A stretch of DNA of 64,000 bases from Candidatus Omnitrophota bacterium (GTDB taxonomy: Bacteria; Omnitrophota; Gorgyraeia; Zapsychrales; JBAZNR01), in the NCBI GenBank assembly GCA_041649175.1, contig JBAZNR010000001.1:450332-514331 (forward strand), read 5' to 3'. Made by a program: the position numbers and the translations under genes. Positions 2,623-40,442 of this stretch are shown here, piece after piece. The notes under the pieces are model-generated. The model was not told the DNA's origin. It was given only the letters and a program-made list of their open reading frames with translations, and did no database searches. Within the stretch, counting starts at the first letter, position 1; the number at the start of each line of letters is the position of its first letter.

Positions 2623-2647
2623 TGGTTTTATTTCTTTTCCTATTTTA

Positions 2648-3715: not shown

Positions 3716-3814
3716 CGGTTTGTTTTAAGTTTAAACGAAAAAGGCAGGAAGGGCAATAGTTAAGATGTTCTTTTTGACTTTGAAAAGAAAGCCCTTGCCT
3801 GATATGAAAAAACT

Positions 3815-4978: not shown

Positions 4979-5075
4979 GGCCCACCTCTTTCATTTTCTT
5001 TGCATTGAATATATTCCCTTTAGGGCTGGGCGCTCATTTTGTCATTTGACAAAATGAGCGCCACAAAAATAAATT

Positions 5076-8000
5076 TTATGTGATCGGTAATGTTATCGTA
5101 AAAATACTCCCTTTTCCCACTTCGCTTTTCACTTTTATCTCGCCTTTATGTTCTTTAATAATTCCTTGGCAGACAAAAAGCCCTAGCCCTGTCCCTGATT
5201 CCGCCTTGGTTGTAAAAAAAGCATCGAAAATATGAACAAGGTCTTTTTCCTGTATCCCTTCGCCGGTATCTTTGATCTGGACGATCACATGATGTTCATC
5301 ATGCGTTGTTGTAATGGTTACCTCACCTTTTTGTTTTTTGATGCTGTCATGGGCGTTGAGCACCATATTTAAAAACACCTGATGCAGCTGTTGCTGCCAT
5401 CCCATAACTTTAGGAAGATTTGGATCAAGATTAAGCGTTAATTTAATACCCTTACGGGACAGCTGATGTTCCACCAGCATCACCACTTTATCGATCACAT
5501 CATGCAGATCCATTTTTCCTTTGGCTTCTTCTTCTCCGCGATAGATATCGAGAAGCTTTGAAACGATATTGCGGATCTTTTCAATATTATTTTTTACAAA
5601 TTCGTAATTTTTGACCTTTTCAAACCCTTTGGGAAAATTGTCGTGGATGATCTCTAAATGAGTTGTGATCCCCTGTAGGGGATTATTGATCTCATGGGCG
5701 ATGCTGGCGGCGAGCCGCCCTGTGGCGGCGAGCCGCTCGGATTGCCGTAAGCCGCGGGTACGTTCTTCTACTAATTCCTCCAAATGTTTACGGTACTTCT
5801 CAAGCTCTTCCTGAACTTTCTTACGTTCATCAATGTCGCGGACAACAGCTAAGATACGGTCTTCATCACCAATACGGGCGCGTTTTAAATTCACTTCCAC
5901 CCAAAACGATTTTCCTTGCTTATTTTTGCTGAACCATTCAAACAATTGCGGTTGGCCTTGCGCGGCTTTTTGGATCAGCTCTAAAGCACGCTTTTGATTT
6001 TGAGAAGACCTATCGGAGCTGATGTCAATAACCTCTATGGATCTCATCTCTTCTGATGTATACCCATACATCTCGCACGTCTTTTGATTGACATCAAGAA
6101 TTTTCCCTGTCTTTACATCATGAATAAAGATCGCGTCATTGGCAGAATTAAAAATAGACCGGTAATTGATCTCAGATCTGGCAATAGCCTCTTGGATCTT
6201 TTTAAGGACCGTAATATCCGTTGAAACGCCTAAAATAGCCGGCGTATTGGTCCCCGGAATATGAAAAGGGATCTTGGTCGTTTGCAAAATACGCTGTTCA
6301 CCTTGGGCGCTGGTAATGACTTCTTCGGGAATAAATTTTCTTTTTCCACTTTTGATAACATCCAGATCATCTTTTCTAAAATGCTCCACTTCCTCTTTAC
6401 TTTTGGCAAAATCGGCGTCGGTTTTTCCGACGATCTCCTCCACCGTTGTCCCATAAACTTCGGCTACGGCCTGATTAACTAAAATGAACCGCCCATCAAT
6501 ATCTTTGGCAAAAACAAAATTCGGCGTTAGATCGATCACTTGGCGAAGTTTCGCTTCATTTTCTTTGACAATATTCTCGGCTAATTTACGCTCGGTAATA
6601 TCCTGAATCATGGTTTGAAAACCGATCATCTTTCCGGCTTTGATAAGGGGAGTATTGCTGATATTGGCATAGAACTCTTTTTTGGATCCCGTAACACATC
6701 TAACCTCGTGATAACGCGCTTGGACTTTCTCTGACCTTACCGCTTCCTGAAATATTTTTAGGATGCGTTCTTTTTCATCCGGATGAAGAAACATAAGAAA
6801 TGATTGGTTGATAATATCTCTTCTATCTCTTTCGAACATCTCCAAAAAAGATCTATTCGCAAAAAGGACCCGGCCGTCCATCGCCACATGTAAAACACCC
6901 GCCGATATACTTTCAAAAAGCAATTTGTACTGTGCTTCGTTCTCTTTGAGCTTTTCTTCCGCTTCTTTTTTCTCGGTCACATCTCGCCAGCTAGCGACAA
7001 TGCCATGTGTTTTCCCGTCTTTCTGTTTAATGACCCTTCCATTGGCTTCCATCCACAAATAATGCCCTTGGGCATGTCGGCAACGAAAAATGGCCCAACC
7101 GCTTTCCGAGGCCAGCGCTTTCTTAAATTCATTTTTTAATCTCGACAGATCCTCGGGATGAACAAAATCAAAAGCATTCGTTCCTACCATTTCTTTGGAA
7201 CGATAACCTAAGATACTTTCGATGGAGGGGCTGTGATAAAGGATGTTTCCTTCCAGGTCAAGCTCGGTAATAAGCTCCACCATGTTATCCGTGATCCGGC
7301 GCAGTCTCTCCTCGGAATTTCGCAAGTCTTCTTGGGCGCTATGTCGTTTCTCCTCGACGCCGATCGCCGAAGCCAAAATACCGATAGTTTTAATATCAAG
7401 TTCTGTCGGCTCAAGATCTTTTTGATAAACAGCGCACAAAGACCCGACACAGGTATTTGAAAATTTAACTGTTTTCCCTAAATATGTTTTTAATTGGTAC
7501 TTTTGGACATTAGGATCGCTTTGAGCATACCGGCTGTTTAAAAGATCGCGGATGATCATAACCTCGTCTTGTCCGCCTTTAATAACATCACAACAAATAT
7601 GTCCCCGGGAATCATCTTTGATCTTGTAACCATCCGGAACATTCCAACGGCCTAAAGAGTGCAGTTTTCCATCTTCCATGCGATTATAAATAACACAGGT
7701 GGCTCCCAAAAGTTCTCCGCACACAGCCGCGATCTTATTAATATTTTCTACCGGATCATCACTGAAGTTTAAGAAACATTCATTGATCTTTTTTAACCTT
7801 TCCTCGGGATTTTTCCGGTCAGAGATATCGCGGACGATACAAATAAGCCCTCCGTCTTCCAGGGCCGTTAAAGAAATTTCCTGAGGAAAAAGTTCTCCAT
7901 TTTTCCTTTTGCCGACAGATTCACCGCGCCATTTTTTCTCTCTAAAAAGAATGGGCATGATCTCGCTTTCAATATGCTTTAGCTCTTTGGGGCCATAAAG

Positions 8001-8270
8001 AACTCTCCACGATTTTCCGACGAGTTCTTTAGGGTCGTTATAGCCATAAATTTTGGCATGGGCATTGTTCATACAGGAATATTTTTCCTTGTTGTCCAAA
8101 ATAGCAATGCCGTCCATCGAGGCATGCATAGCGCGCATGTGATGACGGACAAGTTCGGGATTTATGTCTTGTTCCAGATCGGTCAAAGAGCGGCTGCAGT
8201 CTTCTTTTAAAACGATCGGAGAAGACCCGCGAGAGTTACTCAAGAAACGTTTTATAAAATCGATCATCAT
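5076..8270 (-). CDS. Multi-PAS/PAC (+GAF-like) sensor histidine kinase
   Basis: About 1064 aa. It has several PAS/PAC repeats, an H-box (AHEINNPLQGI), and an HATPase_c domain (DTGEGI…GTGLGL). The ORF-track start at 8273 is TTG; the first ATG is at 8268-8270, 4 nt after the upstream gene's stop. Confidence 0.85.
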   Translation of the reverse strand: MMIDFIKRFLSNSRGSSPIVLKEDCSRSLTDLEQDINPELVRHHMRAMHASMDGIAILDNKEKYSCMNNAHAKIYGYNDPKELVGKSWRVLYGPKELKHIESEIMPILFREKKWRGESVGKRKNGELFPQEISLTALEDGGLICIVRDISDRKNPEERLKKINECFLNFSDDPVENINKIAAVCGELLGATCVIYNRMEDGKLHSLGRWNVPDGYKIKDDSRGHICCDVIKGGQDEVMIIRDLLNSRYAQSDPNVQKYQLKTYLGKTVKFSNTCVGSLCAVYQKDLEPTELDIKTIGILASAIGVEEKRHSAQEDLRNSEERLRRITDNMVELITELDLEGNILYHSPSIESILGYRSKEMVGTNAFDFVHPEDLSRLKNEFKKALASESGWAIFRCRHAQGHYLWMEANGRVIKQKDGKTHGIVASWRDVTEKKEAEEKLKENEAQYKLLFESISAGVLHVAMDGRVLFANRSFLEMFERDRRDIINQSFLMFLHPDEKERILKIFQEAVRSEKVQARYHEVRCVTGSKKEFYANISNTPLIKAGKMIGFQTMIQDITERKLAENIVKENEAKLRQVIDLTPNFVFAKDIDGRFILVNQAVAEVYGTTVEEIVGKTDADFAKSKEEVEHFRKDDLDVIKSGKRKFIPEEVITSAQGEQRILQTTKIPFHIPGTNTPAILGVSTDITVLKKIQEAIARSEINYRSIFNSANDAIFIHDVKTGKILDVNQKTCEMYGYTSEEMRSIEVIDISSDRSSQNQKRALELIQKAAQGQPQLFEWFSKNKQGKSFWVEVNLKRARIGDEDRILAVVRDIDERKKVQEELEKYRKHLEELVEERTRGLRQSERLAATGRLAASIAHEINNPLQGITTHLEIIHDNFPKGFEKVKNYEFVKNNIEKIRNIVSKLLDIYRGEEEAKGKMDLHDVIDKVVMLVEHQLSRKGIKLTLNLDPNLPKVMGWQQQLHQVFLNMVLNAHDSIKKQKGEVTITTTHDEHHVIVQIKDTGEGIQEKDLVHIFDAFFTTKAESGTGLGLFVCQGIIKEHKGEIKVKSEVGKGSIFTITLPIT

Positions 8271-8274
8271 CAAT

Positions 8275-16056: not shown

Positions 16057-16230
16057 GGAAGATAAAAAGTTTGGCCCAAATTTTGCCTTACACAAAATTT
16101 GGGCTACCTCGGCAACCACAATTAAATCTCTTCGAGATTTAATTGGCCGACCCACGCCTTCGGCATGGGCGGGTTTTTTCTGCTGAAAAACCCGGGTGAG
16201 GGATATTATACTAAAGGGATAAAAAAAGTG

Positions 16231-18111
16231 TTAATGTTCTTTTGTCCGATGTTCATCTTCCTTAGAACCATCACCCGTGACCCATGTCCACTTCATTGGA
16301 TAGACATCGGGGTCAAACATCACAAAATATCCGTGCCAAATAAGGATCGCCAAGCAGGCCAAAACCGCTTCATAGTAATGAATAGCCGCGATCACATCGT
16401 AAAGCCATTTAGGGAAATAATGTAAAAACCAATTTTCCCAAAGCATCAATCCTCCGGTTAAAACCATGATCATCGAGCCCCACACTAAAGCCCAATATTC
16501 AAATTTCTCAACGTATCCGTAAAATCCAAATATAGGTCTTTCTTTGCGCCACCCAAAATAATAAGCGAACATTTGCCCGCATTGGATAAAATCTTTTTTG
16601 CGCAAAATAAGGGCATTAAGATGATGCCGTCCTTTTTGCGTGAATAAAACATACACGACATGATACAGCGATAAAACGCAAAAGATAAGCGCGGCCGCGC
16701 GATGCCCGAGGCTGCGCCAATCAACCCGCCCAACGAAAGGACTGGCCCACCAGGCTTGAGGATATTTTAAAGCAAATCCGGTATACGCTAAAGCGATGAA
16801 AGCCGTCAGCAAAATAAGATGCTGAATGCGCTCATTAGTTGACATGCGTTTGGGTTTTCCCAAAGAAGACATTCTTTGATAATGCGCCCGCAGCTTCTTT
16901 ATAAAATCGAGGCAATTGTGAAGAAATAGAAATCCGATCACGGCAATGATCAAAATAATATAAAACCGGCTGACAAAAAAACCGGCTTTGTTTTCCAAAC
17001 CTGATTTTCGGCTGGTATGGATCTTGCCCTTCGCTACTTGTTCGCTCACCCCCGCGTGGCATTTACCGCAGGTCTGCTCTAGATTCTTAGGATTGACGGA
17101 AGAATTGCTGTCGCTTACGGGCAATATATCGTGAAAACCATGGCACGACGCGCAGTTGGCGGTAATGACCGAACCCAGCTTGATGGCGAGCCCGTGGTAA
17201 CTTTGCATAAATGTATCGACGACATTATTGGGCAAACTATATTTTGTGGTGATGCGCTCAACCGCGTGGCATTGTCCGCAAGTTTCTGTAATATGCGCCG
17301 GAGCAACCTTTGAGGTGATCTTTTTGACTTCTTCAATAGAATGTTCTCCGTGACAATCGGTACACACGGGCGCTTCTCTTTTTCCTTCTCTAACAGCTTG
17401 CCCGTGAATACTGCGCATATACGTCATCTGAACGTTTTCGTGGCATTTTCCACAGGTGGTGGGGATATTTTTCCAAAATAATTTTGAATCTTCATTGGTG
17501 GCTTTACTTAATGCGTGGGAACCGTGGCAATCGGTGCACACGGCCGCCTGGATAAGATGGCTTCCCTCGACGGCCATTCCGTGAACGCTATGTTCATAGG
17601 AAGAAACCGGCTCCGCAATATTGAGGTTAAATTTCTTCATCTCTTCGGTCTTTTCATGGCAATGCGCGCAAGTTTTGGGAATATTTTCCCGGTAAACAGG
17701 AGAGACAAGATTGCGGGAATTAAGAAGTTCGTGCGGATTTCCATGACAGCTTTGACAAGTAGCCGCTTCGGTAACGCCATGGCCTAAAGCCTTGCCGTGA
17801 TCGCTATTTAAATAAAGCTCGGTTTCAATGCGATGGCAGCTTCCGCAACTGACGGGTTTTAGTTTTTCTTCGTGCGGGACTTCCACAATGTCCGAATGGC
17901 AACTGATACATAAATTTCCGCCGTGAATAGACGATTTGAATTTTTCCGGATCGACAAAAGGTGTGGCTTCGGGGTCGCTGTGGCAGGTAAAACAAGTTTC
18001 ATTATCAATAACTTCTTTTTCTTCGCCGAACGATTGCGCGGAAACGCTCAAAAAACAGCAAAGAATAAAGAAACAGATCTTAAAGTTTTTGGTCGTAAGA
18101 AAATTTTTCAT
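16231..18111 (-). CDS. CbcL-like inner-membrane quinol-oxidoreductase-type cytochrome: 11-haem c-type periplasmic domain fused to a dihaem cytochrome-b (HydC/FdnI-like) membrane domain
   Basis: A signal peptide is followed by 11 CXXCH motifs (CFTCH, CISCH, CGSCH, CQSCH, CAHCH, CTDCH, CGKCH, CTDCH, CGQCH, CASCH, CGKCH). A C-terminal ~230-aa segment has 4-5 TM helices with conserved His residues (…HRAAALIFCVLSLYHVVYV…IAAIHYYEAVLACLAILIWHGY…), as in Ni/Fe-hydrogenase/formate-dehydrogenase b-type cytochromes. Confidence 0.8.
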   Translation of the reverse strand: MKNFLTTKNFKICFFILCCFLSVSAQSFGEEKEVIDNETCFTCHSDPEATPFVDPEKFKSSIHGGNLCISCHSDIVEVPHEEKLKPVSCGSCHRIETELYLNSDHGKALGHGVTEAATCQSCHGNPHELLNSRNLVSPVYRENIPKTCAHCHEKTEEMKKFNLNIAEPVSSYEHSVHGMAVEGSHLIQAAVCTDCHGSHALSKATNEDSKLFWKNIPTTCGKCHENVQMTYMRSIHGQAVREGKREAPVCTDCHGEHSIEEVKKITSKVAPAHITETCGQCHAVERITTKYSLPNNVVDTFMQSYHGLAIKLGSVITANCASCHGFHDILPVSDSNSSVNPKNLEQTCGKCHAGVSEQVAKGKIHTSRKSGLENKAGFFVSRFYIILIIAVIGFLFLHNCLDFIKKLRAHYQRMSSLGKPKRMSTNERIQHLILLTAFIALAYTGFALKYPQAWWASPFVGRVDWRSLGHRAAALIFCVLSLYHVVYVLFTQKGRHHLNALILRKKDFIQCGQMFAYYFGWRKERPIFGFYGYVEKFEYWALVWGSMIMVLTGGLMLWENWFLHYFPKWLYDVIAAIHYYEAVLACLAILIWHGYFVMFDPDVYPMKWTWVTGDGSKEDEHRTKEH

Positions 18112-18123
18112 GGATCTAAAGGA

Positions 18124-19623
18124 TCAGTTTCCCGTGTGGCAATCGGTGCAATTCATTTCTTTCCAGCTTTCATCTTCATTGAATGGATGGCGAAACGTTA
18201 AACCATCCGTGCTTTTTTCTATGGATGAAGCCGTGCCCTGCTCAATGATGGAGTGGCAGCTATTGCAGTTTTTGGTAATTGTTTTACCGCTTGCGGCCGC
18301 ATGTTGATCGTCGTGACAGCGAAAACATCCCGGAGAAACCAAATGCCCGATATTATCCGGATAAATATCCCATCGTGCTTTTCGTTCCGGAAAAATATTA
18401 TTTTTAAATAAAATAACGATCTCGTCGGCGGACTTTTTAATATCTTCTTGATGTGATTGATAAAATTCGGGGTGTTTATTTTGATAATATTCCAGAATCG
18501 TTTTAGGAATAGCCTGGAGCGCTTCTTGTTCGGTTTTATACGGCTTAGATAGAACTTCCATGGCTTTACTTTTGATCGATGGGATCTGTGGGTTTATTTT
18601 GCCGTCATTCATCGCCCGATTGATCAAGTCAAATGGAGGTTCAAAGCGATGCGAGGGGCGATTATGACAATCCATGCAATCCATCTTGCGCACAAGGCTT
18701 TGAGGCGGTTCTTTATCTTTATAGGGCGAATCGGGCGTTGTAAAGATCTCTTCTTTGCCGTCTTTGCCAATAGTTTTAACCCAAGAGATCACCTGGCGTT
18801 TTTGATCATCGGCCACGTAATAAACATCCTGATCAACATACATATGCGAATGAATGCCGTAATCTTTCTTTTCGTCCCGGCCGACGTGGATCAGCATACG
18901 CAAAGACCACGGGTCGGGCTGGTCGGCTTCCGTGGAACGGTATGTCCGGCGCAGTTCCACAGAACTATAGAATTTTCCCGGCCAGTGGCATTGTTCGCAT
19001 GTTTCTGCCGATGGACGCAAGTTTTGGACCGGCGTGGGAATAGGTTTGGCATAATCATTTTTTATGGTGTGATAAACTTGGCGCAAGCCGGAAAGTTTTG
19101 ATTTTACGTACCAGTTGGCGCCAGGCCCGATGTGGCATTCCACGCATTTAACGCGAGCATGCGGCGAATTAAGATAGGTAGCATATTCGGGTTTCATCAC
19201 ATCGTGACAGGTCACTCCGCAAAAATGGACCGATTCGGTATAGTGAAACGCCTTATAAGAACCGATAATGGTCATCACCATTAAAATGGATGTTCCGATC
19301 AGAAAAACAAAAATAGCATTGCGGTGAGTGGGAATAGCGGGATCAATGAAAAGCGTTTTGGGCGCGGATTCTGAAATTCCTTTTAAAATTCGCTTGTGTT
19401 TCCAGGCTGCCCCCAAAGGAATTAAGATAAGCCCTAAAATAAGAAAGGGCGGGAGAAAAACATAGGTGAGAATGCCTAAATAAAAATTAGCGCCGTTGGT
19501 AAAGAAATCAATGCCGAACAGAAGGCATTCGATAATAAATACCAGAAGCGCTAAGGCAACACCGCCGTAAGTTATGCGGTTATAAAAATAATCGGAAAAT
19601 TTATGTTTCTTTTCTGTGGGCAT
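18124..19623 (-). CDS. ImcH-like inner-membrane multihaem c-type cytochrome (3 N-terminal TM helices, NapC/NirT-like region, 7 CXXCH)
   Basis: 499 aa. Three predicted TM helices are followed by CGVTCH, CVECH, CEQCH, CMDCH, CFRCH, CNSCH and CTDCH. The architecture matches the Geobacter ImcH description. Confidence 0.75.
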   Translation of the reverse strand: MPTEKKHKFSDYFYNRITYGGVALALLVFIIECLLFGIDFFTNGANFYLGILTYVFLPPFLILGLILIPLGAAWKHKRILKGISESAPKTLFIDPAIPTHRNAIFVFLIGTSILMVMTIIGSYKAFHYTESVHFCGVTCHDVMKPEYATYLNSPHARVKCVECHIGPGANWYVKSKLSGLRQVYHTIKNDYAKPIPTPVQNLRPSAETCEQCHWPGKFYSSVELRRTYRSTEADQPDPWSLRMLIHVGRDEKKDYGIHSHMYVDQDVYYVADDQKRQVISWVKTIGKDGKEEIFTTPDSPYKDKEPPQSLVRKMDCMDCHNRPSHRFEPPFDLINRAMNDGKINPQIPSIKSKAMEVLSKPYKTEQEALQAIPKTILEYYQNKHPEFYQSHQEDIKKSADEIVILFKNNIFPERKARWDIYPDNIGHLVSPGCFRCHDDQHAAASGKTITKNCNSCHSIIEQGTASSIEKSTDGLTFRHPFNEDESWKEMNCTDCHTGN

Positions 19624-19646: not shown

Positions 19647-19705
19647 AAAAGGTGCTTTGGCGCGGCCTTATAAAGCCGCGCCAAAGCACCTTCTTTTTCT
19701 ATTTT
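19647..19705. terminator. Bidirectional rho-independent-terminator-like hairpin (19-bp perfect stem) between the beta-barrel gene and the ImcH-like gene
   Basis: The sequence aaaaggtgctttggcgcggc-cttataaa-gccgcgccaaagcacctt is followed by a T-run (ctttttctattttt) on the plus strand and by an A/T-rich tract on the minus strand. Confidence 0.45.
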
Positions 19706-19728: not shown

Positions 19729-21783
19729 TTACCACGTAAACTTTGTATCCAACCAAACAACATGGGCGCTGTAGTTTCCGTAGCCGTCCGTTGCAAAAAG
19801 ATCACCCGGATTTGCCTTATAGGAATAGTATCCGTAATGAGGTTCCAGCGTAAGATCTTTTTTAGGAGACCACCTTGCTCCTAACGTAATATCGTACGCT
19901 TCGCTATTGACCCCATACGGCATACCAACCCACCCATGAGAATCGAAATCGTTAGTTGTCGAATATTGAGCGCTGCTATAAAAACTCAAATTTTCTTTAG
20001 GCGCGTAACTGGTTGATAAAAGCAACGTATAGACATCGGCAACATAAACAGGAACTCCTCCGCCGCTTACGGCCGTTTGCGATGCCGGCGTTGAGACTTT
20101 GAACTGATTTAACGACGCCCCAACATTAAACATCCACTCATCCAAAGGCTGCACAGAAATATCGTAAGTATACACCCTTGAATTGGCATTGCTTTTGATC
20201 CAATCTCTTTGCGGCGTTACAACAGGAGTCGATTGAACTTGGTAAACCGTATCAGCTAACTGCACGCGGAAAGAATTCTGAAACCATTTGGTCGGCTTCC
20301 AAACAAGCCGATTGTTCCACTCATCTGATTTGGTCCGAATCCTTGAAATACTCACCGCATTGTCATTATTTTGATATATGTCGTAGGTGTTGCGGTCCGA
20401 CTTGAGTCTAACATTCGAAGTCATATTGACCTTATTATTAAAAACATAACGAATGCCCATGACCCCTGTCGATTCAGGATTAGTATCTAAATACTCCGTA
20501 TAGCTCGTTCCCAGAGCAGCTTTTGAATTCCAGCTTCGCGTCTGTTGAAAATCCCAATCCGTATAAAGACTGGTTTTAGACCAACCAGTATAATTCAAAG
20601 AGAGTGATTCGCCGGTGCGGGTTATCTGATTTTCGGTAACATCCGCCTTATTGGAACCACTTAAAAACCCTTGCCTAAAACCAAAACCGGTTGAAGCAAT
20701 AATTTCTTGTTTCAATTTTGTACTGAAGTTTAGATCCGGTGTCAAATTCGTGGCAAAATGCTCAACCCAAGAATGTGAATCGCGGCTAGCCCATCCATCC
20801 ACAACACCATTATGACTGCTTCCCGTAGGAAGGCCTGTTGTTGAATCAAAGGCTAAGATCGTTTCCAGCATGTCGCTCTTTGAATTCTGGAATTGATAGC
20901 CAAAAGAAACATATGTTTTGTCATTCATCATCCAGCGATCTGCCCTCAGCGATGAAACTAATTGCTTGGATCTGGGTTCTTGTGTGGTGCGAACATATTC
21001 CGTGCTGTCATTATCTTCCCTCATCGTGCGTCCTGAATAAAACTCAGCTTTTTGCTTGCCCTTAACGTTAAATCCGGCAACATTCACATTTCCTTTGATC
21101 TCGATAGCATCGATGGCCGTTGAGACGTCTTGCCAGGCAGGGTTTATTTTACGAGTAACTCCTTCAACAACATCGCCCCACGTTAGCCTGCTTTTTGTTC
21201 CTTCTTTGGTATCACGCCGATAGCTTAAGGCTATCCCGGGTTCGCTTTCAACATTGCTTCCTGCTTCAAAAAAGAAATGCCCTATATCCAATGCCGGATC
21301 GAGGGGTAATTTAGAAATAGACTGTCCTCCGAAATTGGTATAAAAACCTCCATAAACATCATACCATTTGCGAAAATTCCCATAATCCAACGTCACGTAG
21401 TTGCCGTTACCCTTAACAAGATTAAGATTAGCGTCAAAATCATTGTCACCAGAAATGACGTGTCCCTGAAAAGACAAGTGGTCACCATTACCCAGATCAC
21501 CCTCAAAGGTCATATCTTTAATTCCGGTGGCTGTCCCGTCATTCATCCAATTTAAAGCACGGAATTTCGCCGCATCTCCTTTGACGCTGACATAACGAAG
21601 AGGCATAAATTCAAAATTGTCCAATTTAAACTTTTGAGTAAAATCGCTGATGTCCTGATTGAACAACTTTTTTAAGGTTTCCGTTAATGTGCCGGCAAAA
21701 ACATTTGTTTGGCCCAAGCCAAAAACCAGCATAAAGATCGTCAGCAGGACCGGGCTGAAATCCTTTAAAATATGTTTTTTCAT
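19729..21783 (-). CDS. Large outer-membrane beta-barrel protein, MtrB/PioB/MtoB-like porin partner of the upstream multihaem cytochrome
   Basis: The ORF track gives 19729..21828 with a TTG start. The likely start is the ATG at 21781-21783 (MKKHILKDFSPVLLTIFMLVFGLGQTNVFAG, a signal peptide) with SD AAGGAGGTG. The mature protein is ~660 aa, Cys-free, and has a pervasive amphipathic beta-strand pattern. It ends in the C-terminal aromatic 'TKFTW'. Its position is immediately downstream of an MtrA-family cytochrome. Confidence 0.7.
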   Translation of the reverse strand: MKKHILKDFSPVLLTIFMLVFGLGQTNVFAGTLTETLKKLFNQDISDFTQKFKLDNFEFMPLRYVSVKGDAAKFRALNWMNDGTATGIKDMTFEGDLGNGDHLSFQGHVISGDNDFDANLNLVKGNGNYVTLDYGNFRKWYDVYGGFYTNFGGQSISKLPLDPALDIGHFFFEAGSNVESEPGIALSYRRDTKEGTKSRLTWGDVVEGVTRKINPAWQDVSTAIDAIEIKGNVNVAGFNVKGKQKAEFYSGRTMREDNDSTEYVRTTQEPRSKQLVSSLRADRWMMNDKTYVSFGYQFQNSKSDMLETILAFDSTTGLPTGSSHNGVVDGWASRDSHSWVEHFATNLTPDLNFSTKLKQEIIASTGFGFRQGFLSGSNKADVTENQITRTGESLSLNYTGWSKTSLYTDWDFQQTRSWNSKAALGTSYTEYLDTNPESTGVMGIRYVFNNKVNMTSNVRLKSDRNTYDIYQNNDNAVSISRIRTKSDEWNNRLVWKPTKWFQNSFRVQLADTVYQVQSTPVVTPQRDWIKSNANSRVYTYDISVQPLDEWMFNVGASLNQFKVSTPASQTAVSGGGVPVYVADVYTLLLSTSYAPKENLSFYSSAQYSTTNDFDSHGWVGMPYGVNSEAYDITLGARWSPKKDLTLEPHYGYYSYKANPGDLFATDGYGNYSAHVVWLDTKFTW

Positions 21784-21805: not shown

Positions 21806-22567
21806 TTATTCACGTAAATGCCGATCAAAATATGACCCGTGTGGTGCTGTATGACATCCGGCGCTCCAACATGATCCTTGAAGATTGCGTGTATTATGAT
21901 TACTGTTTCCTATTCTAGGAAAGTTTGCTTGGACGTGACAACGCAAACACAAATTGTTATCTCTGGCAACCAACATTTTATCCGTAATAGACCCATGAAC
22001 CTTATGACAGCTCGTGCATCCATCGCGTAAGGCCTGATGCTCCCACGGAAACGGTCCTTGCTGGTCTTTATGGCATTTAAAACAAGTTTCATTGACATCT
22101 TCCATGCTGGTCGCTGTCCATGGCCGGCTGTCACTGCCATGCGCATTATGGCAATCAGAACAGCTCATTTTTCCTTCCAGGACAGGATGACGATAAGGAA
22201 GTTTGAATTCCATCTTTTTTTCCGTATGACAGGTAAAACAGGCTTCCGGATTTTTGTCGGGATTAACCATCGTTCCTCTGCCGCCGCCGTTTTCAACGTG
22301 AATACTGCCCGGGCCATGGCACATTTCGCACCCTTGGGCCTCGATCTCATCTCCTTTTACTTCTATCCTGGAATGAGTTGAAAGTTGATACTCTCGATTT
22401 TCTTTTTCATGGCACGAGGCGCACGTTTCGCTGCCAACGTAGGTAGCGCCTTTCATGCTGGGAAGAATATTGTTCATCTCCTGTGCCGCTTCAACCCTTA
22501 ATCCAAAAAATAATAGCGACAAAACACCAAGAATCTGGCAAATCCTTAAAAGCCATTTTCCGGCCAT
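21806..22567 (-). CDS. Periplasmic multihaem c-type cytochrome of the MtrA/MtoA/PioA/DmsE family (7 CXXCH + 1 CX4CH)
   Basis: The start is the ATG at 22565-22567 (signal peptide MAGKWLLRICQILGVLSLLFFGLRVEAAQE) with SD AAGGAGGG. The ORF-track N-extension overlaps the upstream gene. The motifs SCSDCHNAHGS, ETCFKCHKDQQGPFPWEHQ, GCTSCHKVHGS, LCLRCHVQ and SCWSAGCHTAPHGS align with conserved MtrA blocks (TCSDCHNPHGS, DTCYSCHAEKRGPKLWEHA, NCVTCHNPHGS, LCQQCHAS, SCLNCHSQVHGS). Confidence 0.8.
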   Translation of the reverse strand: MAGKWLLRICQILGVLSLLFFGLRVEAAQEMNNILPSMKGATYVGSETCASCHEKENREYQLSTHSRIEVKGDEIEAQGCEMCHGPGSIHVENGGGRGTMVNPDKNPEACFTCHTEKKMEFKLPYRHPVLEGKMSCSDCHNAHGSDSRPWTATSMEDVNETCFKCHKDQQGPFPWEHQALRDGCTSCHKVHGSITDKMLVARDNNLCLRCHVQANFPRIGNSNHNTRNLQGSCWSAGCHTAPHGSYFDRHLRE

Positions 22568-22624: not shown

Positions 22625-22897
22625 TTATTGGGTCGCCTCCGGGGCCTTGCCAACTTTTTGATATGTTTCAGCCGTCGGTTGCGGATTTTCTTTAATAACC
22701 TTTTGGCCATATTCGCTCAACTCATGCATGCCGTCATCTTTTTTTGGCATTTTATCGGTATGGCAGGCAATGCATTTAGGTGATTCTCCGGGAAAAGCCT
22801 CTTTATATACTTTGATCTCTTTCATATCAGCTTGCGCCGCAACAGCCCATCCTAGAATAATAACAGCGGTTAAAAGAAATAAGTGTTGATGTTTCAT
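22625..22897 (-). CDS. Small periplasmic monohaem cytochrome c (MtoD-like position)
   Basis: 90 aa. A signal peptide (…GWAVAAQA) is followed by a single CIACH. SD GGGAGGAAGG is present. It lies immediately upstream of the MtrA-like gene, with only a 1-nt gap. Confidence 0.75.
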   Translation of the reverse strand: MKHQHLFLLTAVIILGWAVAAQADMKEIKVYKEAFPGESPKCIACHTDKMPKKDDGMHELSEYGQKVIKENPQPTAETYQKVGKAPEATQ

Positions 22898-22929: not shown

Positions 22930-24522
22930 TTATGATGTTTTTAAACTTTTCCTTATGCCGACAAAGGCAAAAAAAGCCGCCTCAAAAATAAGATAATAAA
23001 CGATCCAAGCGCTTTGACCCGCGCCAAAACCATAGCTATGCAGGCCCTTTCCTAAAATAAAATTCACACCGTACCATGTCATAAGAACTAAAAGAAATCC
23101 CAAAATAGCGCCGACAGCCAAGGCCTTATTGCTTAATTTTCCGGCGTGACGAAAATGAACAATGACCATATATCCTAAAAAGGTAATGAGCGCCCAGGTT
23201 TCTTTAGGATCCCATCCCCAAAACCGCCCCCAGGATTCATTAGCCCAAACGCCGCCTAAGATCGTTCCGATCCCAAGAGCGATCAACCCTGCCTGCAGTA
23301 AACGATTAATCATATGCGCCGAAACGGCTTCGCTATTTTCGGAAAACTTTCCTAAAGCGTTTAAGAAAAGATGCCGGTGGCCTAAGGCCATGGCGAGCCC
23401 AAAAATACCATAACTGGAAACGATCGTTAACACATGAATGGCCAGCCAATAATTGCTTTTGAGAACCGGGACTAAAACATCCAAAGATTTTTCTACCGGG
23501 AGAAGGTCGGCAAAGATCATGACCAAAGCCCCGGTTAAAGCCGCCACCGATAAAACGAAATATTGCTTTTTAGATAAAAAGAAAATAAAGGCACCGGCCA
23601 CTAAGATCCAATTCATAAAAATGATCGACTCATACATGTTGGACACCGGTGGACGCCCTAAAATAATAACCCTCAGCAAAAGCCCCGCTGAATGAAATAA
23701 AAATCCAGCTAAAACCAGCGTAACGCCTGTCATGCGCAATAAAGATTTCGAACTGAAAAAAGATACAAAAATAAAAGCGATCAGATATAAAACCCATGCC
23801 CACAAAAAAGGTTTGAGCTGATAATAAATATTTTCCAGGTAGACATAAGGCGCGAATACTTCCGGCGAATGCCGTTCAATATCTCTGCTCCACTGCCCGG
23901 CGAGCCCAACAAAATCTAAAGATCCCTTGGAATATAAAAGTGTCAGGACCCTGAAATTTTCTGCCAGTAATCCGGACGTCTTATAAGGAGATTCCCATTC
24001 TAAAGTGGCCGTGGGAATGGTTTTAATATATTCTTGCGCAGCCAGATCATCGACGGTTAAAAGGCGCGTATAAAGCAATTCGGCCGCTTGCTCCGTAGAC
24101 GTAAGCGTTAATTCGCGTTGGCGTTTGTCTTTCGCGCTTTGGATCAGCGTCAATAATAGAGGAACACAGCTTTTAAGCTCTCGATAGGAGAAATATTTCT
24201 TATCCGCGGAAAGGTCGACGGCTTTTTTTAATTCCAGATGATCGACGCGGATAAATGGAATTTCCAGAAACTTCTTCGGATCATGAAGATTTTTAAAAAT
24301 AACCGAAACAGCCGGCTCTTGACCCCAGGTTTCTTTCCCGGAAATAAGCCGCAAGGTTTCCCGGGAAAAAACATCGAATGATTTAATGCGCCCGTTATGC
24401 TGAATGGGAATTTTCCCGGCGGCGCGAGGCATTACATCGGTTGCGCCACAAGAACAAAGCGAAAAACATATTGTTCCCAGGGCCATCAAACATAAAGCAC
24501 TTTTTTTGATTCTCGTTACCAT
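22930..24522 (-). CDS. ccsA: Cytochrome c biogenesis protein CcsA/ResC (system II haem-handling, WWD domain) with N-terminal periplasmic extension
   Basis: 530 aa. The tryptophan-rich WWD motif 'WGRFWGWDPKETWALITFLGY' is present, with conserved His residues in flanking TM helices. Confidence 0.85.
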   Translation of the reverse strand: MVTRIKKSALCLMALGTICFSLCSCGATDVMPRAAGKIPIQHNGRIKSFDVFSRETLRLISGKETWGQEPAVSVIFKNLHDPKKFLEIPFIRVDHLELKKAVDLSADKKYFSYRELKSCVPLLLTLIQSAKDKRQRELTLTSTEQAAELLYTRLLTVDDLAAQEYIKTIPTATLEWESPYKTSGLLAENFRVLTLLYSKGSLDFVGLAGQWSRDIERHSPEVFAPYVYLENIYYQLKPFLWAWVLYLIAFIFVSFFSSKSLLRMTGVTLVLAGFLFHSAGLLLRVIILGRPPVSNMYESIIFMNWILVAGAFIFFLSKKQYFVLSVAALTGALVMIFADLLPVEKSLDVLVPVLKSNYWLAIHVLTIVSSYGIFGLAMALGHRHLFLNALGKFSENSEAVSAHMINRLLQAGLIALGIGTILGGVWANESWGRFWGWDPKETWALITFLGYMVIVHFRHAGKLSNKALAVGAILGFLLVLMTWYGVNFILGKGLHSYGFGAGQSAWIVYYLIFEAAFFAFVGIRKSLKTS

Positions 24523-24533: not shown

Positions 24534-26246
24534 TTACGCGTTTTCCGGCCTTCGTGAAAACGGCTTAACATAAAATTGTAGAAAAGCTCCGGCAAAAATA
24601 ATGATCGAACTAGTATAGATAAGGCTAATGCCGGGATTTTTGGCAATGGTAAAAACAGATCCTTCTTTTTCATTAGGGTTTTGCATGAACGAAGATTGAA
24701 AGATGCGAAATCCCCGGTAATCAAACGGTTGATTCATGGCGATCGTCTTCTCCAGGCGAATATTTTCCTGTTGGTCTTCCACGGTCACATCACTTTCAAA
24801 CGATGCCGGACGGTTCGTTCCGGGATAATCTACTTTTCGAAAATCTTTAAGCGTCAAAGAGAAGGGCACTTGTTTTTGCGCCGGAATAATAGATACGAAA
24901 AGATCGTTCTGTCCGACAGAGATCTTTTTTTCTTCCCCTTCTAATACCCATATTGGAGAATTCCCGTTTTGATGATTGATGACGACCTTGGCGGCCAATG
25001 CGCCCTCACCGGGAACATCCACGGCGGTTATCTCATGGGAAACCAAGGCATGCGTATATAATTTTTCAACCCGCGCTAACATATCTGCCCACCCTAATTC
25101 GATAGTTTCCCCGGAATGAACAGCTCCTTTTTTTATGATCTCCTGCGCGGACATAGATTGGTATTGAAATTTTCCATCGGGATCAATGAAAAAATTTAAA
25201 GAAGGCCCGCCATAGGATTGCTCTTCCTTAGCGCCGGGAACATCAAGATCGATGACAATATCAAATTCATTTTGAGATGTTTGATGATGCATCGATTCAA
25301 AATCAGGAAACAAGGCAAATCGAATGTAATGACGTGCTCGCCCTTGGCCGTCTACCGCGTCAAATTCAACCGCCGGATTAAGAGAACCGCTTTGAGGCGC
25401 ATTGACCAGCTTGTGTTCGGAAACTCTGGCATACGGATAATACTGAAGCCCTTTGATGGTCAATCCTTTTTGCTTCAACGGAATTTCTTTAGGCGCCGGC
25501 TGATTAAGATCAAGGACCGTTAATATTTCCCCGGATTTTTCCGCGATCGTTAATGTCGGGCTTTGCGTGGAAATTTTTTCTTCTTTTTTTCCTAAAGAAA
25601 CCTTTAAAGGCCCAAAAAACTGCACGGCAGAAGACAAATGCCCTTGATCGCCTTCGATAAGCCAAAACGCCTGATCAACTCCCATCGACGGGCTTTTTAA
25701 GGTGACCTGTAAGGCATTTTGAGCCGGATTTTGAACGGTTCCTTCTCGGACGATCAGTTGGGGCGCGGCATGTTCGATAATATCTTTCACGATCATCGTT
25801 TCGTTCTTTTCAGCACCGTTTAAAATATGTTCACCCTTGCGTAGATCAAAAACATGTTCAGCCTTGCCGGGCACAACCACACTAAGACTGTATCCGCCGA
25901 GCCTTATTGTATTGGCTGTTTCTCCTTCTCGTAAAGCCATCTGGCCTTCAACGGCCAACAAACGCGTCAACAAAGACCCTAAAAGCAATCCTAAAATACC
26001 AATATGAGTAATGAGAAATCCTGTGTGATACTTTTTAAAAGGAATTCTCAAGATCGTTGAACAAAAGATATTGATCCAAAGCAAAGATAAAAGTGCGTCA
26101 AACCATTTCGTTTGATAAAAAGTTTTCTGAGCGAACGGTGTTCCGTGCATCGATTCCATAACGGTTGCCACGATCAAAAGCGCCATTAAGCTCGCACAAA
26201 TAAAAGCCGTAAAAGAAAGGGATCCTAATTTTTTAACGAGCCACAT
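24534..26246 (-). CDS. ccsB: Cytochrome c biogenesis protein ResB/CcsB/Ccs1 (system II)
   Basis: The N-terminus has TM helices and a conserved His (…VMESMHGTPFAQKTFY…), followed by a large periplasmic domain and a C-terminal TM. The likely start is the ATG at 26244-26246 (MWLVKKLG…) with a GGAG SD. The ORF-track extension to 26288 overlaps hemA. Confidence 0.85.
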   Translation of the reverse strand: MWLVKKLGSLSFTAFICASLMALLIVATVMESMHGTPFAQKTFYQTKWFDALLSLLWINIFCSTILRIPFKKYHTGFLITHIGILGLLLGSLLTRLLAVEGQMALREGETANTIRLGGYSLSVVVPGKAEHVFDLRKGEHILNGAEKNETMIVKDIIEHAAPQLIVREGTVQNPAQNALQVTLKSPSMGVDQAFWLIEGDQGHLSSAVQFFGPLKVSLGKKEEKISTQSPTLTIAEKSGEILTVLDLNQPAPKEIPLKQKGLTIKGLQYYPYARVSEHKLVNAPQSGSLNPAVEFDAVDGQGRARHYIRFALFPDFESMHHQTSQNEFDIVIDLDVPGAKEEQSYGGPSLNFFIDPDGKFQYQSMSAQEIIKKGAVHSGETIELGWADMLARVEKLYTHALVSHEITAVDVPGEGALAAKVVINHQNGNSPIWVLEGEEKKISVGQNDLFVSIIPAQKQVPFSLTLKDFRKVDYPGTNRPASFESDVTVEDQQENIRLEKTIAMNQPFDYRGFRIFQSSFMQNPNEKEGSVFTIAKNPGISLIYTSSIIIFAGAFLQFYVKPFSRRPENA

Positions 26247-27297
26247 AGGATTTCTCCGATGGATTAAGCTTTGATGCTTCTGCGACACGAATTTTTTCTA
26301 TTTTGGCGTAAAATTCATCAATTTTTTTAGCGATGATCTTTTCAACCTCTTCAACCGCCAAGCGGCGGCGGGCAATATTATGCTCCACGGCTTTATCGAG
26401 ATCGTCGACGGATAACAAAGAAACATTTTCTATAAAAGCAATATCAGGATGAATATTGCGCGGCATAGAGATATCGATCAAAACTAACTTTTGTTTCGCG
26501 CGTGCCGGCATAATTTGATCGATCAGGTCTTTTTCTAAAAGATACTGCGGAGCGCTGGCCGAACAAATGCAGACATCAACTTTGGCCAGGATATTTTTAA
26601 GCTCAAGGAAGGAAACCGCTTCGGCGCCAAATTCATTGGCCACGGCGCAGGAATTTTCATGTGTACGGCTCATGACATAAATCTTACTGGCGCCTTTTTC
26701 TTTTAGATGGCTCACCGCCAAATGCCCCATTTTCCCGGCGCCGATGATCAAAACAGATTTATCCTGAAGGGTCCCCAATAAATGTTGCGCCATCGTGACC
26801 GCCGCCCAGCTGACCGATGACCCACCGCAACCGATGGCCGTTTCACTCTGAGCTTTTTTCCCGGCGCGAATAACGATCTGGGACAGAACATTGAATTCTT
26901 TTTGCAGCATTGCTTTGGCGCGGGACAATTCTACCGCTTCTTTGATTTGCCCTAACACTTGTTTTTCTCCTAAGATCAGAGAATCAGCTCCCGTTGAAAC
27001 GCGTAAAAAATGCTCCAGCGCTTCTTTGCCCTGATAGGAATAAAAATATTTCTGAACATCCGTCCCCATAGAGATCTTTTTGATACGGCAAAGATGGTCG
27101 AGCAAAATACCAACATTCTCGTCGATAAGATGAGCGCAGATTTCCGTGCGGTTGCAGGTCGAAAGAACAATGGCTTCTATAATACGAGGATCGTTTTTAA
27201 ATTCATTAAGCAAAAGCGTGCGTTCATTTAAATTGAGATGGAACTTTTCCCGTATCTCGATAGGTGCTGTCTTATGATTAATTCCGCAAAGGATCAT
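26233..27297 (-). CDS. hemA: Glutamyl-tRNA reductase
   Basis: The likely start is the ATG at 27295-27297 (MILCGINHKTAPIEIREKF…), aligning with the canonical HemA N-terminus. The catalytic 'LSTCNRTE' and the NADP-binding 'LIIGAGKMG' are present. The ORF-track N-extension (to 27462) is non-homologous. Confidence 0.85.
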   Translation of the reverse strand: MILCGINHKTAPIEIREKFHLNLNERTLLLNEFKNDPRIIEAIVLSTCNRTEICAHLIDENVGILLDHLCRIKKISMGTDVQKYFYSYQGKEALEHFLRVSTGADSLILGEKQVLGQIKEAVELSRAKAMLQKEFNVLSQIVIRAGKKAQSETAIGCGGSSVSWAAVTMAQHLLGTLQDKSVLIIGAGKMGHLAVSHLKEKGASKIYVMSRTHENSCAVANEFGAEAVSFLELKNILAKVDVCICSASAPQYLLEKDLIDQIMPARAKQKLVLIDISMPRNIHPDIAFIENVSLLSVDDLDKAVEHNIARRRLAVEEVEKIIAKKIDEFYAKIEKIRVAEASKLNPSEKSYVAR

Positions 27298-27889
27298 GTT
27301 TCTTGCAAACCTTTTTAATTTCCCGAAGGATAAAATTTTTCTCAACCAAATGCAGATCTTCGTCGGCTGCTTTGTGGATTTGTTCGCTTTCCGCGCGCAC
27401 GTGATGGCGCAAAAGGCACATAAGATACGTCCCTTTTTCTTTGAGCTGTTCGATGATCTCAAAACGCCTGTTTTCCGTTTTGGCGTTTTTTAACTGCTCA
27501 AATAGCACAATAAATGATCTTAAATTAGATTTAAACTCTCGGTGGTCGATCTTGAAAATCTTAATGGCCGGGCTAAGCCGCGGAATATGGGTGGCGACGA
27601 ACGGAAAAAGGATGCGCTCATCGAGATCCATGTGCGGCAACAATGTTTTTTGGAAGAATTTTAAAATTTCCGCTATGCTTTTGATGTTGCGCCCTAAAGA
27701 AACTTTGCCTTCATAACGTAAATTGACCAAAAACTGCAGAAGTTGTTGGGATTTTTTTAAGACCTCTTTATGACAATGTTCTAAAGATGTGGTCACGCCT
27801 ACGCGATTTTTATGCACCATAAAAAAGCCGCTCCTATTTTTCGTAACATTATAAGAGACAGTGTGTTTTGTGTCTGTGATATCCATCAC
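27278..27889 (-). CDS. Hemerythrin-like (HHE cation-binding) domain protein (tentative)
   Basis: 203 aa with several His/Glu-containing helical segments (…LEHCHKEV…HMDLDERILFP…HREF…RHHVRAESEQIH…) consistent with a hemerythrin-like fold. The assignment is weak and the start is uncertain. It overlaps the hemA start by 20 nt. Confidence 0.4.
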   Translation of the reverse strand: MMDITDTKHTVSYNVTKNRSGFFMVHKNRVGVTTSLEHCHKEVLKKSQQLLQFLVNLRYEGKVSLGRNIKSIAEILKFFQKTLLPHMDLDERILFPFVATHIPRLSPAIKIFKIDHREFKSNLRSFIVLFEQLKNAKTENRRFEIIEQLKEKGTYLMCLLRHHVRAESEQIHKAADEDLHLVEKNFILREIKKVCKKHDPLRN

Positions 27890-27920: not shown

Positions 27921-28619
27921 TTAAGAAAGGTGTTTTTCCAGGCCGTTTTTGTTAAGAATAACGATCTGCTTTGGTTTGATCTCGATCAATTTCTTGCGTT
28001 TAAATTCATGCAGGTGGCGGGCGACTGTTTCGCGGCTTGAGCCGATACGATGGGCTATTTCTTCCCGGGTAAAGGGAAGAGAGACAAGGTTTTCTTGAGT
28101 ACGTAAAGCGACATTATTACCGTGTAGGTCCAAAAGGAATTTCGCCAGCCTTTTTTTGGTATCGTCCAATGATACTTTTTCGATCAAAGAACTGAATTTC
28201 GATAGGCGTTCGGCAAAGATCCGGTTTAGAGTATGCGTGAGCTGCGAGCTGACCTTAACTAAGCGAACATAATCTTCCCGGGATAAAAACCATACCTGAC
28301 ACGTCGTTAGGGCTTCGGCGGAAGAGGAACAGCACCACTGCGTCGCCCCGGGATTACAAGCACACGTATCTCCGCCTTCCAAAACCTCCAGGATCTGTTC
28401 CCGGCCGGATGATGCCGTACGAAAAACCTTAACCCTGCCGGAGCGAATAACAAAGACACGCTCACAAGGCTTGCTGTCATAAAACAAGAGCTCGCCTTTT
28501 TCATATATCTTTTCTTTGATGCAGGATCGTAAAAGTTTAAGCTCTTTAGAAGAAAGGCCCCGGAAAAGGCCGATATCTTTTAAGGCAGGAGAGAAAGATT
28601 TCTTATCGTGGTTTGACAT
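27921..28619 (-). CDS. Crp/Fnr-family transcriptional regulator (cNMP-binding domain + C-terminal HTH)
   Basis: 232 aa. A beta-roll effector domain is followed by the HTH 'REEIAHRIGSSRETVARHLHEFKRK'. An unusual Cys cluster 'GDTCACNPGATQWCC' lies in the effector domain. Confidence 0.85.
   Translation of the reverse strand: MSNHDKKSFSPALKDIGLFRGLSSKELKLLRSCIKEKIYEKGELLFYDSKPCERVFVIRSGRVKVFRTASSGREQILEVLEGGDTCACNPGATQWCCSSSAEALTTCQVWFLSREDYVRLVKVSSQLTHTLNRIFAERLSKFSSLIEKVSLDDTKKRLAKFLLDLHGNNVALRTQENLVSLPFTREEIAHRIGSSRETVARHLHEFKRKKLIEIKPKQIVILNKNGLEKHLS

Positions 28620-37629: not shown

Positions 37630-40442
<2,813 letters not shown>

Follow-up and report, generated by a model that had tools for sequence, protein, structure and literature searches.

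An ImcH-like and a CbcL-like cytochrome gene in tandem at the end of a cytochrome gene string of an Omnitrophota bacterium: candidate alternative couplers between the quinone pool and an MtrAB-like conduit

What two genes for multihaem cytochromes of the inner membrane do side by side is the question raised by a 64-kb stretch of the metagenome-assembled genome of an uncultured Candidatus Omnitrophota bacterium (assembly GCA_041649175.1, contig JBAZNR010000001.1, positions 450,332 to 514,331), to which all statements on "the window" refer and within which all positions are counted. A sequence-only reading had named the two genes imcH-like and cbcL-like, after the Geobacter cytochromes ImcH (GSU3259) and CbcL (GSU0274), and had seen in their tandem a single regulated high/low-potential interface with the quinone pool. 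Both open reading frames (ORFs) lie where that reading had put them, on the minus strand, with 499 and 626 amino acids (aa) and a gap of 12 nt (18112-18123) between them, and they close a same-strand string of genes for a Crp/Fnr-family regulator, a hemerythrin, HemA, ResB, CcsB, a monohaem cytochrome c, an octahaem cytochrome and a porin. The G+C content of the gene pair equals that of its flanks. In Geobacter the two genes are unlinked and imcH is monocistronic. We propose that the pair probably encodes co-expressed alternative couplers, one electroneutral and the other electrogenic, which would connect the menaquinone pool to an MtrAB-like conduit, the potentials at which they work and the direction of flow being ones that we infer.

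The 499-aa protein agrees with ImcH in every feature that was compared and its membership of the ImcH family is supported, by way of the published motif map and not of a direct alignment to GSU3259. Hydropathy gives three hydrophobic helices (22-40, 50-68, and 103-121), and the Lys/Arg-rich N-terminus and 70-100 loop place these two segments in the cytoplasm and everything beyond residue 121, the haem domain included, in the periplasm. The first haem motif, at residue 135, is a CX3CH (C135GVTCH), the published hallmark of ImcH; CXXCH motifs follow at 160, 209, 316, 433, 453, and 492. The "3 TM + 7 CXXCH" of the sequence-only reading is therefore right in its three transmembrane (TM) helices and its seven haem motifs and has to be corrected to six CXXCH and one CXXXCH. 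GSU3259 has 507 aa, motifs at 132/156/205/311/428/448/486 and TM helices at 13-35/45-67/100-122 (Zhong & Shi 2018, Table S3). By its motif and helix maps the 499-aa protein is collinear with it at an offset of 3-6 residues, the motif spacings being 25/49/107/117/20/39 here and 24/49/106/117/20/38 in GSU3259. The quinol-site residues named in the biochemical study of ImcH, H137, Q179 (the distal ligand of haem 1), E127, K173, and Y188, correspond at a constant +3 to H140, Q182, E130, K176, and Y191, as mapped by numbering and conservation, not by direct alignment. Among 81 homologues from 80 genomes the Lys is present in 81, the Gln in 80, Glu or Asp in 81 and Tyr or Phe in 78, and all 81 carry seven haem motifs. 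Three Omnitrophica ImcH homologues of 505 aa with the same motif map were already listed in Table S3 (Zhong & Shi 2018).

Similarity to the NapC/NirT type is confined to a short part of the 499-aa protein (~101-213 overall). PF03264 (NapC/NirT) covers residues 101-191 only; the NrfH model TIGR03153 reaches 54.6 bits over residues 109-213, with a cut-off of 134.2, and the NrfH, TorC, and DmsE models all stay under their cut-offs. The match found in the PDB, NrfH (2j7a_C, E 0.0048), lies in the same region. Over its full length the protein belongs to a coherent family (7,540 matches of ~500 aa at 99-100% coverage), with relatives at 38-55% identity in phyla known for ImcH homologues (Ignavibacteriota/Melioribacter, Acidobacteriota). 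A tetrahaem protein of the NrfH/CymA type with unrelated extensions is ruled out by this full-length seven-haem family and by the sub-cut-off NrfH score. As an observation in its own right, the distal ligand of haem 1 (residue 182, window ~19078-19080) is a Gln here, in Geobacter and in 80 of the 81 cross-phylum homologues; of the 120 closest homologues (P0001-P0120), most of them from Omnitrophota, 30 have Met instead. Such a variation between Gln and Met should alter the potential of the haem at the quinol site.

The 626-aa protein is supported as a bc-cytochrome of the CbcL/MtoC family by its domain composition, its haem ligands and its collinearity with published members, and not by direct alignment to GSU0274. 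It has a signal peptide (residues 10-28, ending in SVSA before QS) and eleven CXXCH motifs, invariant in 23 homologues. Eleven further His residues, ten of them invariant in the same homologues and H365 nearly so, would suffice for bis-His ligation of every c-haem. Its C-terminal domain is of the Ni_hydr_CYTB/formate-dehydrogenase-gamma type (PF01292, E 1.6e-10, 41.5 bits with a cut-off of 30.1; TIGR01583, E 1.4e-12), which agrees with the eleven haems and the HydC/FdnI-type b domain of the sequence-only reading. His431, His470, His578, and His593, invariant in the 23 homologues, align by phmmer to His18, His57, His155, and His169 of Escherichia coli FdnI (1KQF_C), which we take to be the ligands of haems bC and bP in the structure of Fdn-N. 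The FdnI residues that we presume to form its quinone site, Asn110, Gly112, and Gln113, align to Gly, Val, and Glu. Hydropathy predicts a linker helix (379-397) followed by a four-helix domain, and an AlphaFold2 (AF2) model places five long helices after the haem domain (372-414, 425-449, 465-490, 533-557, and 568-598). This model is of modest quality (predicted local distance difference test, pLDDT, 66) and was used for the helix map and for a single Foldseek match, FdnI (1kqf_C), the only one of high probability (0.99, at a weak E of 0.17). No structure of ImcH or CbcL is present in the PDB. With five post-haem helices the C-terminus is predicted to be cytoplasmic, and the close homologues stop at the same C-terminal point. 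The topology thus predicted, periplasmic c-haems and four His residues in register with the b-haem ligands of FdnI, bears out both family assignments of the sequence-only reading: the 499-aa protein is not of the NrfH/CymA type, and the 626-aa protein has His pairs for b-haems.

The haem domain of the 626-aa protein contains an internal repeat: residues ~105-228 (haems 4-7) match residues 236-356 (haems 8-11) with a score of 199, shuffled sequences scoring 33 +/- 6. This duplication of a four-haem module suggests a 3 + 4 + 4 plan and a simple origin for the two extra haems. The last four haems have the 28-43-28 spacing of GSU0274, which ends in one copy of the module. GSU0274 has nine haems, and the sequence-only reading had held the eleven haems to be a distinction of the present protein. 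The count stands and the distinction does not: eleven is the commonest number among the fused CbcL-like genes near imcH (16 of 41, the others having 9, 13, 18, or 19), the family as published spans 3-23 c-haems, and eleven-haem members from Omnitrophica, Opitutae, Lentisphaerae, and Deltaproteobacteria were already tabulated (Zhong & Shi 2018). One of the Opitutae proteins (PAW67162.1) has its haem motifs 3-8 and the second and third of its tabulated TM helices (430-452 and 472-494) at nearly the coordinates found here. The Omnitrophica CbcL entry of RIFCSPLOWO2_12_FULL_44_17 was considered as a counterpart of match P0218 and rejected, the two being different genes (A3G33_10475 and A3G33_10525). 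BLASTP of the 626-aa protein against garbled, machine-read fragments of a supplementary alignment figure from the CbcL paper gave E values of 0.57-3.9; a match by eye was unconfirmed by this and was not used. Both proteins are 100% identical to NCBI entries that bear generic names, "NapC/NirT family cytochrome c" and "cytochrome b/b6 domain-containing protein", respectively.

The genes upstream of the pair would supply a conduit through the outer membrane. The octahaem protein matches MtrA (6r2q_A) by phmmer with E 1.7e-29 and has a match to NF041028; it scores 164 bits with TIGR03508, under the cut-off of 192, and has eight haem motifs, not ten. A strong Shine-Dalgarno (SD) sequence precedes the start of its gene that gives 253 aa. 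The porin has no match in Pfam or NCBIfam and none to any sequence family, MtrB_PioB included, at E values up to 10; its 41 detectable homologues, where named, are all Omnitrophota "hypothetical proteins". Its AF2 model (pLDDT 81) has 26 strands and finds MtrB (6r2q_B) as the top Foldseek match (E 5.9e-14, template-modelling score ~0.6), TonB-dependent receptors following five orders behind at 1e-8. On sequence and model we regard the porin and the octahaem protein as a putative MtrAB-like outer-membrane conduit. At least nine of the porin homologues agree with an ImcH match in the length of the longest contig, which suggests that they lie on the same contigs. The monohaem protein has no family match and no PDB match, MtoD included. 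No surface cytochrome of the MtrC/OmcA/OmcB type was found, there being no further multihaem ORF in the cluster or in the rest of the window. Taken together, the cluster is a haem supply, a maturation system, an MtrAB-like conduit and two couplers to the quinone pool (Table 1).

Is the tandem a chance juxtaposition? A scan of one genome per species gave 576 confirmed ImcH-like loci, and the best 80 (38-55% identity; Omnitrophota, Ignavibacteriota, Bacteroidota, Acidobacteriota, Calditrichota, KSB1, Verrucomicrobiota, Kiritimatiellales, and others) were examined. A fused CbcL-like gene lies within 400 nt of imcH on the same strand at 24 of these loci, in many phyla, and within 10 kb at 36; at 23 loci none is present within the fetched flanks, each of these loci having at least 2.5 kb on both sides. 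The juxtaposition is not due to chance and the linkage is widespread. It is also flexible: cbcL precedes imcH in 21 of the 24 close pairs and follows it in three (L019 of Kiritimatiellales, L047 of Verrucomicrobiota, and L079), and the order found here is a minority form. Two acidobacterial loci (L023, L061) combine a crp gene, a decahaem MtrA-like gene, a gene for a putative outer-membrane protein of ~800 aa, an 11-haem cbcL and imcH; an Omnitrophota locus (L082) has the order cbcL-tatA-tatC-imcH-hemA-resB-ccsB-...-MtrA-like-porin; other Omnitrophota (L087, L002-L004) have the conduit and imcH without cbcL, and in L085, also without cbcL, unrelated small ORFs follow imcH, so that cbcL is an accessory, not a fixed, partner. 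The 2018 survey reported no mtrAB or mtoAB genes adjacent to imcH (Zhong & Shi 2018), a statement that no longer holds, since imcH stands beside MtrAB-like conduits in the present loci. No description of an imcH-cbcL linkage was found in a limited search of the literature, in which only Zhong & Shi 2018 ties Omnitrophota to ImcH.

Other second modules are seen beside imcH. In L086 of Omnitrophota (1153-5620) imcH is followed by genes for a 427-aa multihaem cytochrome, a Rieske protein and a cytochrome b, a different quinone-interacting module where cbcL sits here. Two CbcL-like paralogues with 11 and 9 haems lie downstream of imcH in L079 (9956-15588), back-to-back, and in L047 (9932-18194), ~2.8 kb apart. 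Many loci of Ignavibacteriota and Bacteroidota have both a fused cbcL and a split pair of c-only and b-only genes upstream of imcH.

Between the porin gene and imcH lies a strong stem-loop, read from the sequence as a 19-bp hairpin at 19647-19705. The hairpin is real and stronger than that, a 22-bp stem with a 4-nt loop at 19647-19694; the 141-nt fold has -47 kcal/mol (z = -8.2), and none of 200 shuffled sequences was as stable. No second copy of it occurs in the window and it belongs to no Rfam family, all matches being far under the gathering scores. The tail that follows it, UUUUAAAG, would serve poorly in a terminator on the minus strand, and in the terminator scan the site received a score on the opposite strand only. 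Of the two transcriptional roles suggested for it, independent or attenuated transcription of the pair, the former is unlikely: a search of the minus strand from the porin stop to the imcH ATG gave no promoter-like site, only 23 nt separate the hairpin from this ATG, and the porin and imcH genes overlap in three relatives (L003, L004, and L087). Attenuation, or differential stability of the mRNA, is plausible. The closest relative (L085, ImcH 72% identical) has a stem-loop of different sequence at the same junction. AAGGAGG-type SD sequences stand 6-8 nt upstream of the monohaem, octahaem and porin genes and none was found upstream of the imcH-like or the cbcL-like gene, which suggests a lower translation rate of the membrane components, or SD-independent or leaderless initiation. 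We infer that the hairpin is an intercistronic element which makes the transcript segments unequal, by reduction or stabilisation, giving more conduit and less membrane cytochrome, and that it is not an operon boundary. Another perfect intergenic hairpin of 16 bp with a 2-nt loop (5029-5062) separates two minus-strand genes (3815-4978 and 5076-8273), and this genome may be given to strong stem-loops between its cistrons.

Judged by the 12-nt gap, imcH and cbcL are likely co-transcribed; the single regulated high/low-potential interface of the sequence-only reading is a conjecture that goes beyond this. That the tandem itself would regulate the interface has little in its favour: in Geobacter expression of the two genes is constitutive, and switching from one protein to the other is fast and post-translational. 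Co-transcription fits this picture, both couplers being made and the redox potential picking the one that carries the current. The tandem placement would thus seem to add little regulatory novelty.

The published work on Geobacter gives the proposal its bioenergetic content. There ImcH, which purifies as a dimer alone, is electroneutral, menaquinol being oxidised and its protons set free on the periplasmic side, and the protein is needed only with acceptors above about -0.1 V. CbcL is believed to couple periplasmic cytochrome reduction to cytoplasmic proton release at a lower yield, and deletion of cbcL raises the yield to 170%. We propose that in the present bacterium the two proteins form the inner-membrane, quinone-pool end of a self-contained cluster for extracellular electron transfer. 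The ImcH-like protein would bind menaquinol in an NrfH-type site at the periplasmic face by haem 1 (the CX3CH, His140/Gln182, Lys176, Glu130, and Tyr191) and pass electrons along its seven c-haems while protons leave to the periplasm, which would make it electroneutral. In the CbcL-like protein the eleven bis-His c-haems (three and two four-haem copies) would be wired in the periplasm, via the linker helix, to the FdnI-type domain, whose two b-haems would bridge the membrane as far as a quinone site close to its cytoplasmic side and make the reaction electrogenic. The other genes of the string would co-produce haem (hemA), attach it (resB/ccsB) and provide the monohaem shuttle and the MtrA-like/MtrB-like conduit, with an FNR-type site at the head of the string. 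Menaquinone and conduit would thus be joined by two parallel links that differ in bioenergetic cost, as they do in Geobacter. Potential, acting on the proteins themselves, would decide between the links in place of transcription, and the hairpin and the missing SD sequences would keep the membrane components less abundant than the conduit.

Several points weigh against this reading. Both family assignments go through published maps, domains and ligands in place of direct alignments to the Geobacter proteins; no 507-aa protein with the motif map of GSU3259, nor any representative of the Geobacter type, was present among the best 150 of 3175 matches in the representative library, and Geobacter is likewise absent from the best 80 loci of the genome scan. 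The 626-aa protein has five post-haem TM helices and ends 27 residues past the last, whereas GSU0274 has six predicted, the sixth at 589-611 (Zhong & Shi 2018). The closest relatives (L085, L087, and L002-L004) have imcH with the conduit and no cbcL. Lastly, with a monohaem protein present and no MtrC/OmcB-like surface cytochrome, the parts list also fits the Mto-type clusters of Fe(II) oxidation.

This last point leads to a reading in which the flow is reversed: the MtrAB-like conduit and the monohaem shuttle would take in electrons donated by Fe(II), a mineral or a partner cell, and the CbcL/MtoC-like, possibly also the ImcH-like, protein would reduce the quinone pool, as proposed for Mto clusters. 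The content of the cluster parallels mtoD-mtoA-mtoB with imoA/mtoC (monohaem, MtrA-like, porin, NapC/NirT-type, and CbcL-type), the cluster encodes no extracellular cytochrome of the MtrC/OmcB kind, FdnI-type b domains natively run from the periplasm to quinone, and the CbcL/MtoC family serves iron oxidisers as well as reducers. ImcH, however, has so far been implicated in quinol oxidation only, the monohaem protein has no sequence match to MtoD or to any other PDB entry, and the window, a small sample at 64 kb, holds no carbon-fixation or oxidase genes. We regard electron uptake as a possible but less likely role. The native direction of the FdnI-type domain also allows a serial redox loop, in which CbcL would take low-potential electrons from the periplasm or from outside the cell and reduce menaquinone at the cytoplasmic face with uptake of protons inside, and ImcH, working at the periplasmic face, would turn the menaquinol back into menaquinone, set its protons free outside and hand the electrons on to an acceptor of higher potential in the periplasm or outside the cell. 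The predicted quinone sites do lie on opposite faces of the membrane, and the adjacency is kept across many phyla in both gene orders. Such a loop is nonetheless unlikely: in Geobacter ImcH and CbcL each work alone, both as quinol oxidases with a cytoplasmic donor, 23 of the 80 loci have imcH without a fused cbcL-like gene in the fetched flanks and the closest relatives have no cbcL, and separate donor and acceptor branches are not visible in the cluster. If it did exist, a redox couple wholly outside the cytoplasm, such as two minerals, or a host or partner cell and a mineral, could serve a very small Omnitrophota cell in energy conservation, by means of an FNR-controlled cassette with its own haem-synthesis and maturation genes.

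The 12-nt spacing, and the tight adjacency or overlap that is frequent in other genomes, could also mean that both proteins form an obligate physical hetero-complex, that is, one enzyme. The gene order, however, flips between lineages, tatA and tatC stand between the genes in L082, many genomes have one of the genes without the other nearby, and imcH of Geobacter is monocistronic and lies apart from cbcL, so that a single complex is highly improbable. The proteins could, finally, be ordinary membrane anchors of periplasmic enzymes, one of them an NrfH/NapC that serves a reductase and the other an FdnI/HydC that serves a formate dehydrogenase or a hydrogenase. The generic NCBI names and weak matches to the NrfH, TorC, and formate-dehydrogenase-gamma models would agree with this, but these matches are far under the cut-offs (54.6 vs 134; 48 vs 116), no gene for a catalytic subunit adjoins the pair, and each protein has homologues over its full length, extra haem domains included; this reading is effectively refuted. 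We retain the two alternative couplers as the probable reading.

Table 1 Features of the cytochrome gene cluster and its surroundings, with positions in the window.
Feature	Position	Strand	Evidence
imcH-like gene, 499 aa, inner-membrane heptahaem cytochrome, 3 TM, NrfH-like quinol site	18124..19623	-	ORF, motifs, PF03264, GSU3259 collinearity
cbcL/mtoC-like gene, 626-aa bc-cytochrome, signal peptide, 11 c-haems, linker TM, FdnI-type 4-helix di-haem b domain	16231..18111	-	ORF, motifs, PF01292
Intergenic gap, 12 nt, no Shine-Dalgarno sequence	18112..18123	-	
Intercistronic stem-loop porin/imcH, 22-bp stem, 23 nt before imcH ATG	19647..19694	-	Fold and shuffles
MtrB-like outer-membrane porin, 684 aa, predicted 26-strand barrel	19729..21783	-	AF2, Foldseek
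MtrA/DmsE-like periplasmic octahaem cytochrome, 7 CXXCH + CX4CH	21806..22567	-	TIGR03508, NF041028, phmmer
Monohaem c-type cytochrome, 90 aa, signal peptide, candidate periplasmic shuttle	22625..22897	-	ORF, motif, hydropathy
CcsB/ResC cytochrome c synthase (System II)	22930..24522	-	PF01578, TIGR03144
ResB/CcsA-partner (System II)	24534..26288	-	PF05140
hemA, glutamyl-tRNA reductase (haem synthesis)	26233..27297	-	PF05201, PF01488
Hemerythrin-domain protein	27278..27886	-	PF01814 on the gene call in L001, coordinates mapped to the window
Crp/Fnr-family regulator	27921..28619	-	PF00027, PF13545, PF00325
Perfect FNR/CRP-type palindrome TTGATCTCGATCAA	27976..27989	.	One of two perfect sites in 64 kb
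Terminator-like hairpin + T-run downstream of cbcL; probable operon end	16074..16104	-	

The palindrome of Table 1 falls within the 3'-terminal part of the Crp/Fnr gene and precedes by ~96 nt the ATG of the hemerythrin gene, the first gene after the regulator. Crp-family genes are also found ahead of cbcL-imcH at seven acidobacterial loci (L023, L045, L061, L064, L069, L070, and L076). At the other end of the string, the cbcL stop is directly followed by the best sigma-70-like match of the region, TTAACA-18-TATAAT (16234-16205, minus strand), and a gene of the cation-diffusion-facilitator (CDF) type has its called start at 16056, beyond the terminator-like hairpin (16104-16074). The CDF gene probably forms a unit of its own. 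The window also contains the origin region of the chromosome (41697-43037 and surroundings, 35150-47507), with the GC-skew minimum at about 42 kb, and the cytochrome cluster is no more than ~14-26 kb away from it. On one side of the origin stand genes that we take, by eye from their translations, to be dnaA, dnaN, gyrB, and gyrA, and on the other presumably yidC and parA/parB. A 6S RNA gene (61096-61252, plus strand) and four tRNA genes (35008-35081 on the minus strand; 50249-50320, 50481-50563, and 51393-51466 on the plus strand) score above the Rfam gathering scores.

The locus belongs to a known, widespread arrangement and is not a new kind of system. It presents, in Omnitrophota, a complete and compact pathway for the export or import of electrons, with regulator, haem synthesis, maturation, shuttle, conduit and two quinone couplers. 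The genes of the imcH and cbcL types are physically linked in about one third of the 80 sampled genomes, across many phyla, and imcH does adjoin MtrAB-like conduits, contrary to the 2018 survey. The interaction partners of ImcH were named as a gap in the original ImcH paper; both of these results offer sequence-based predictors of such partners and leave the known mechanism unchanged. The poorly characterised MtrB-like porin family is of moderate interest, as are the comparative by-products.

Compared with known systems, the 499-aa protein resembles GSU3259 in its length (499 vs 507 aa), in its three N-terminal TM helices, in its CX3CH followed by six CXXCH at near-identical spacing, in the confinement of NapC/NirT homology to TM3 and the first haems and in the Glu/Lys/Gln/Tyr residues of the quinol site. 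It differs in its shorter C-terminal tail, in its place in a putative operon after an MtrB-like porin and before cbcL, whereas the Geobacter gene is monocistronic, and in that about a quarter of its closest relatives have Met for the haem-1 Gln. The 626-aa protein shares with CbcL (GSU0274), MtoC, and MtrH a predicted periplasmic bis-His multihaem domain fused to a di-haem b domain of the HydC/FdnI type with conserved His ligands, and it lines up with 11-haem proteins already tabulated for Opitutae and Omnitrophica; it differs from CbcL in having 11 haems instead of nine and five post-haem TM helices instead of six, and in adjoining imcH. With E. coli FdnI (1KQF chain C) it shares the four-helix di-haem b fold, all four His ligands being aligned, but its b domain is fused through an extra helix to a multihaem c domain and it has no FdnG/H partners. 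The cluster as a whole is most like MtrAB/MtoAB with MtoD and ImoA/MtoC, a putative MtrA-family multihaem protein, a predicted 26-strand MtrB-like barrel, a small monohaem protein and couplers of the NapC/NirT and CbcL types being found together in one cluster. In contrast to those systems, the MtrA-like protein has eight haems instead of ten, there is no MtrC, the porin has no MtrB_PioB sequence match, the partner in the inner membrane is a seven-haem ImcH-like protein in place of the tetrahaem CymA/ImoA, and hemA and the System II maturation genes are embedded in the cluster itself.

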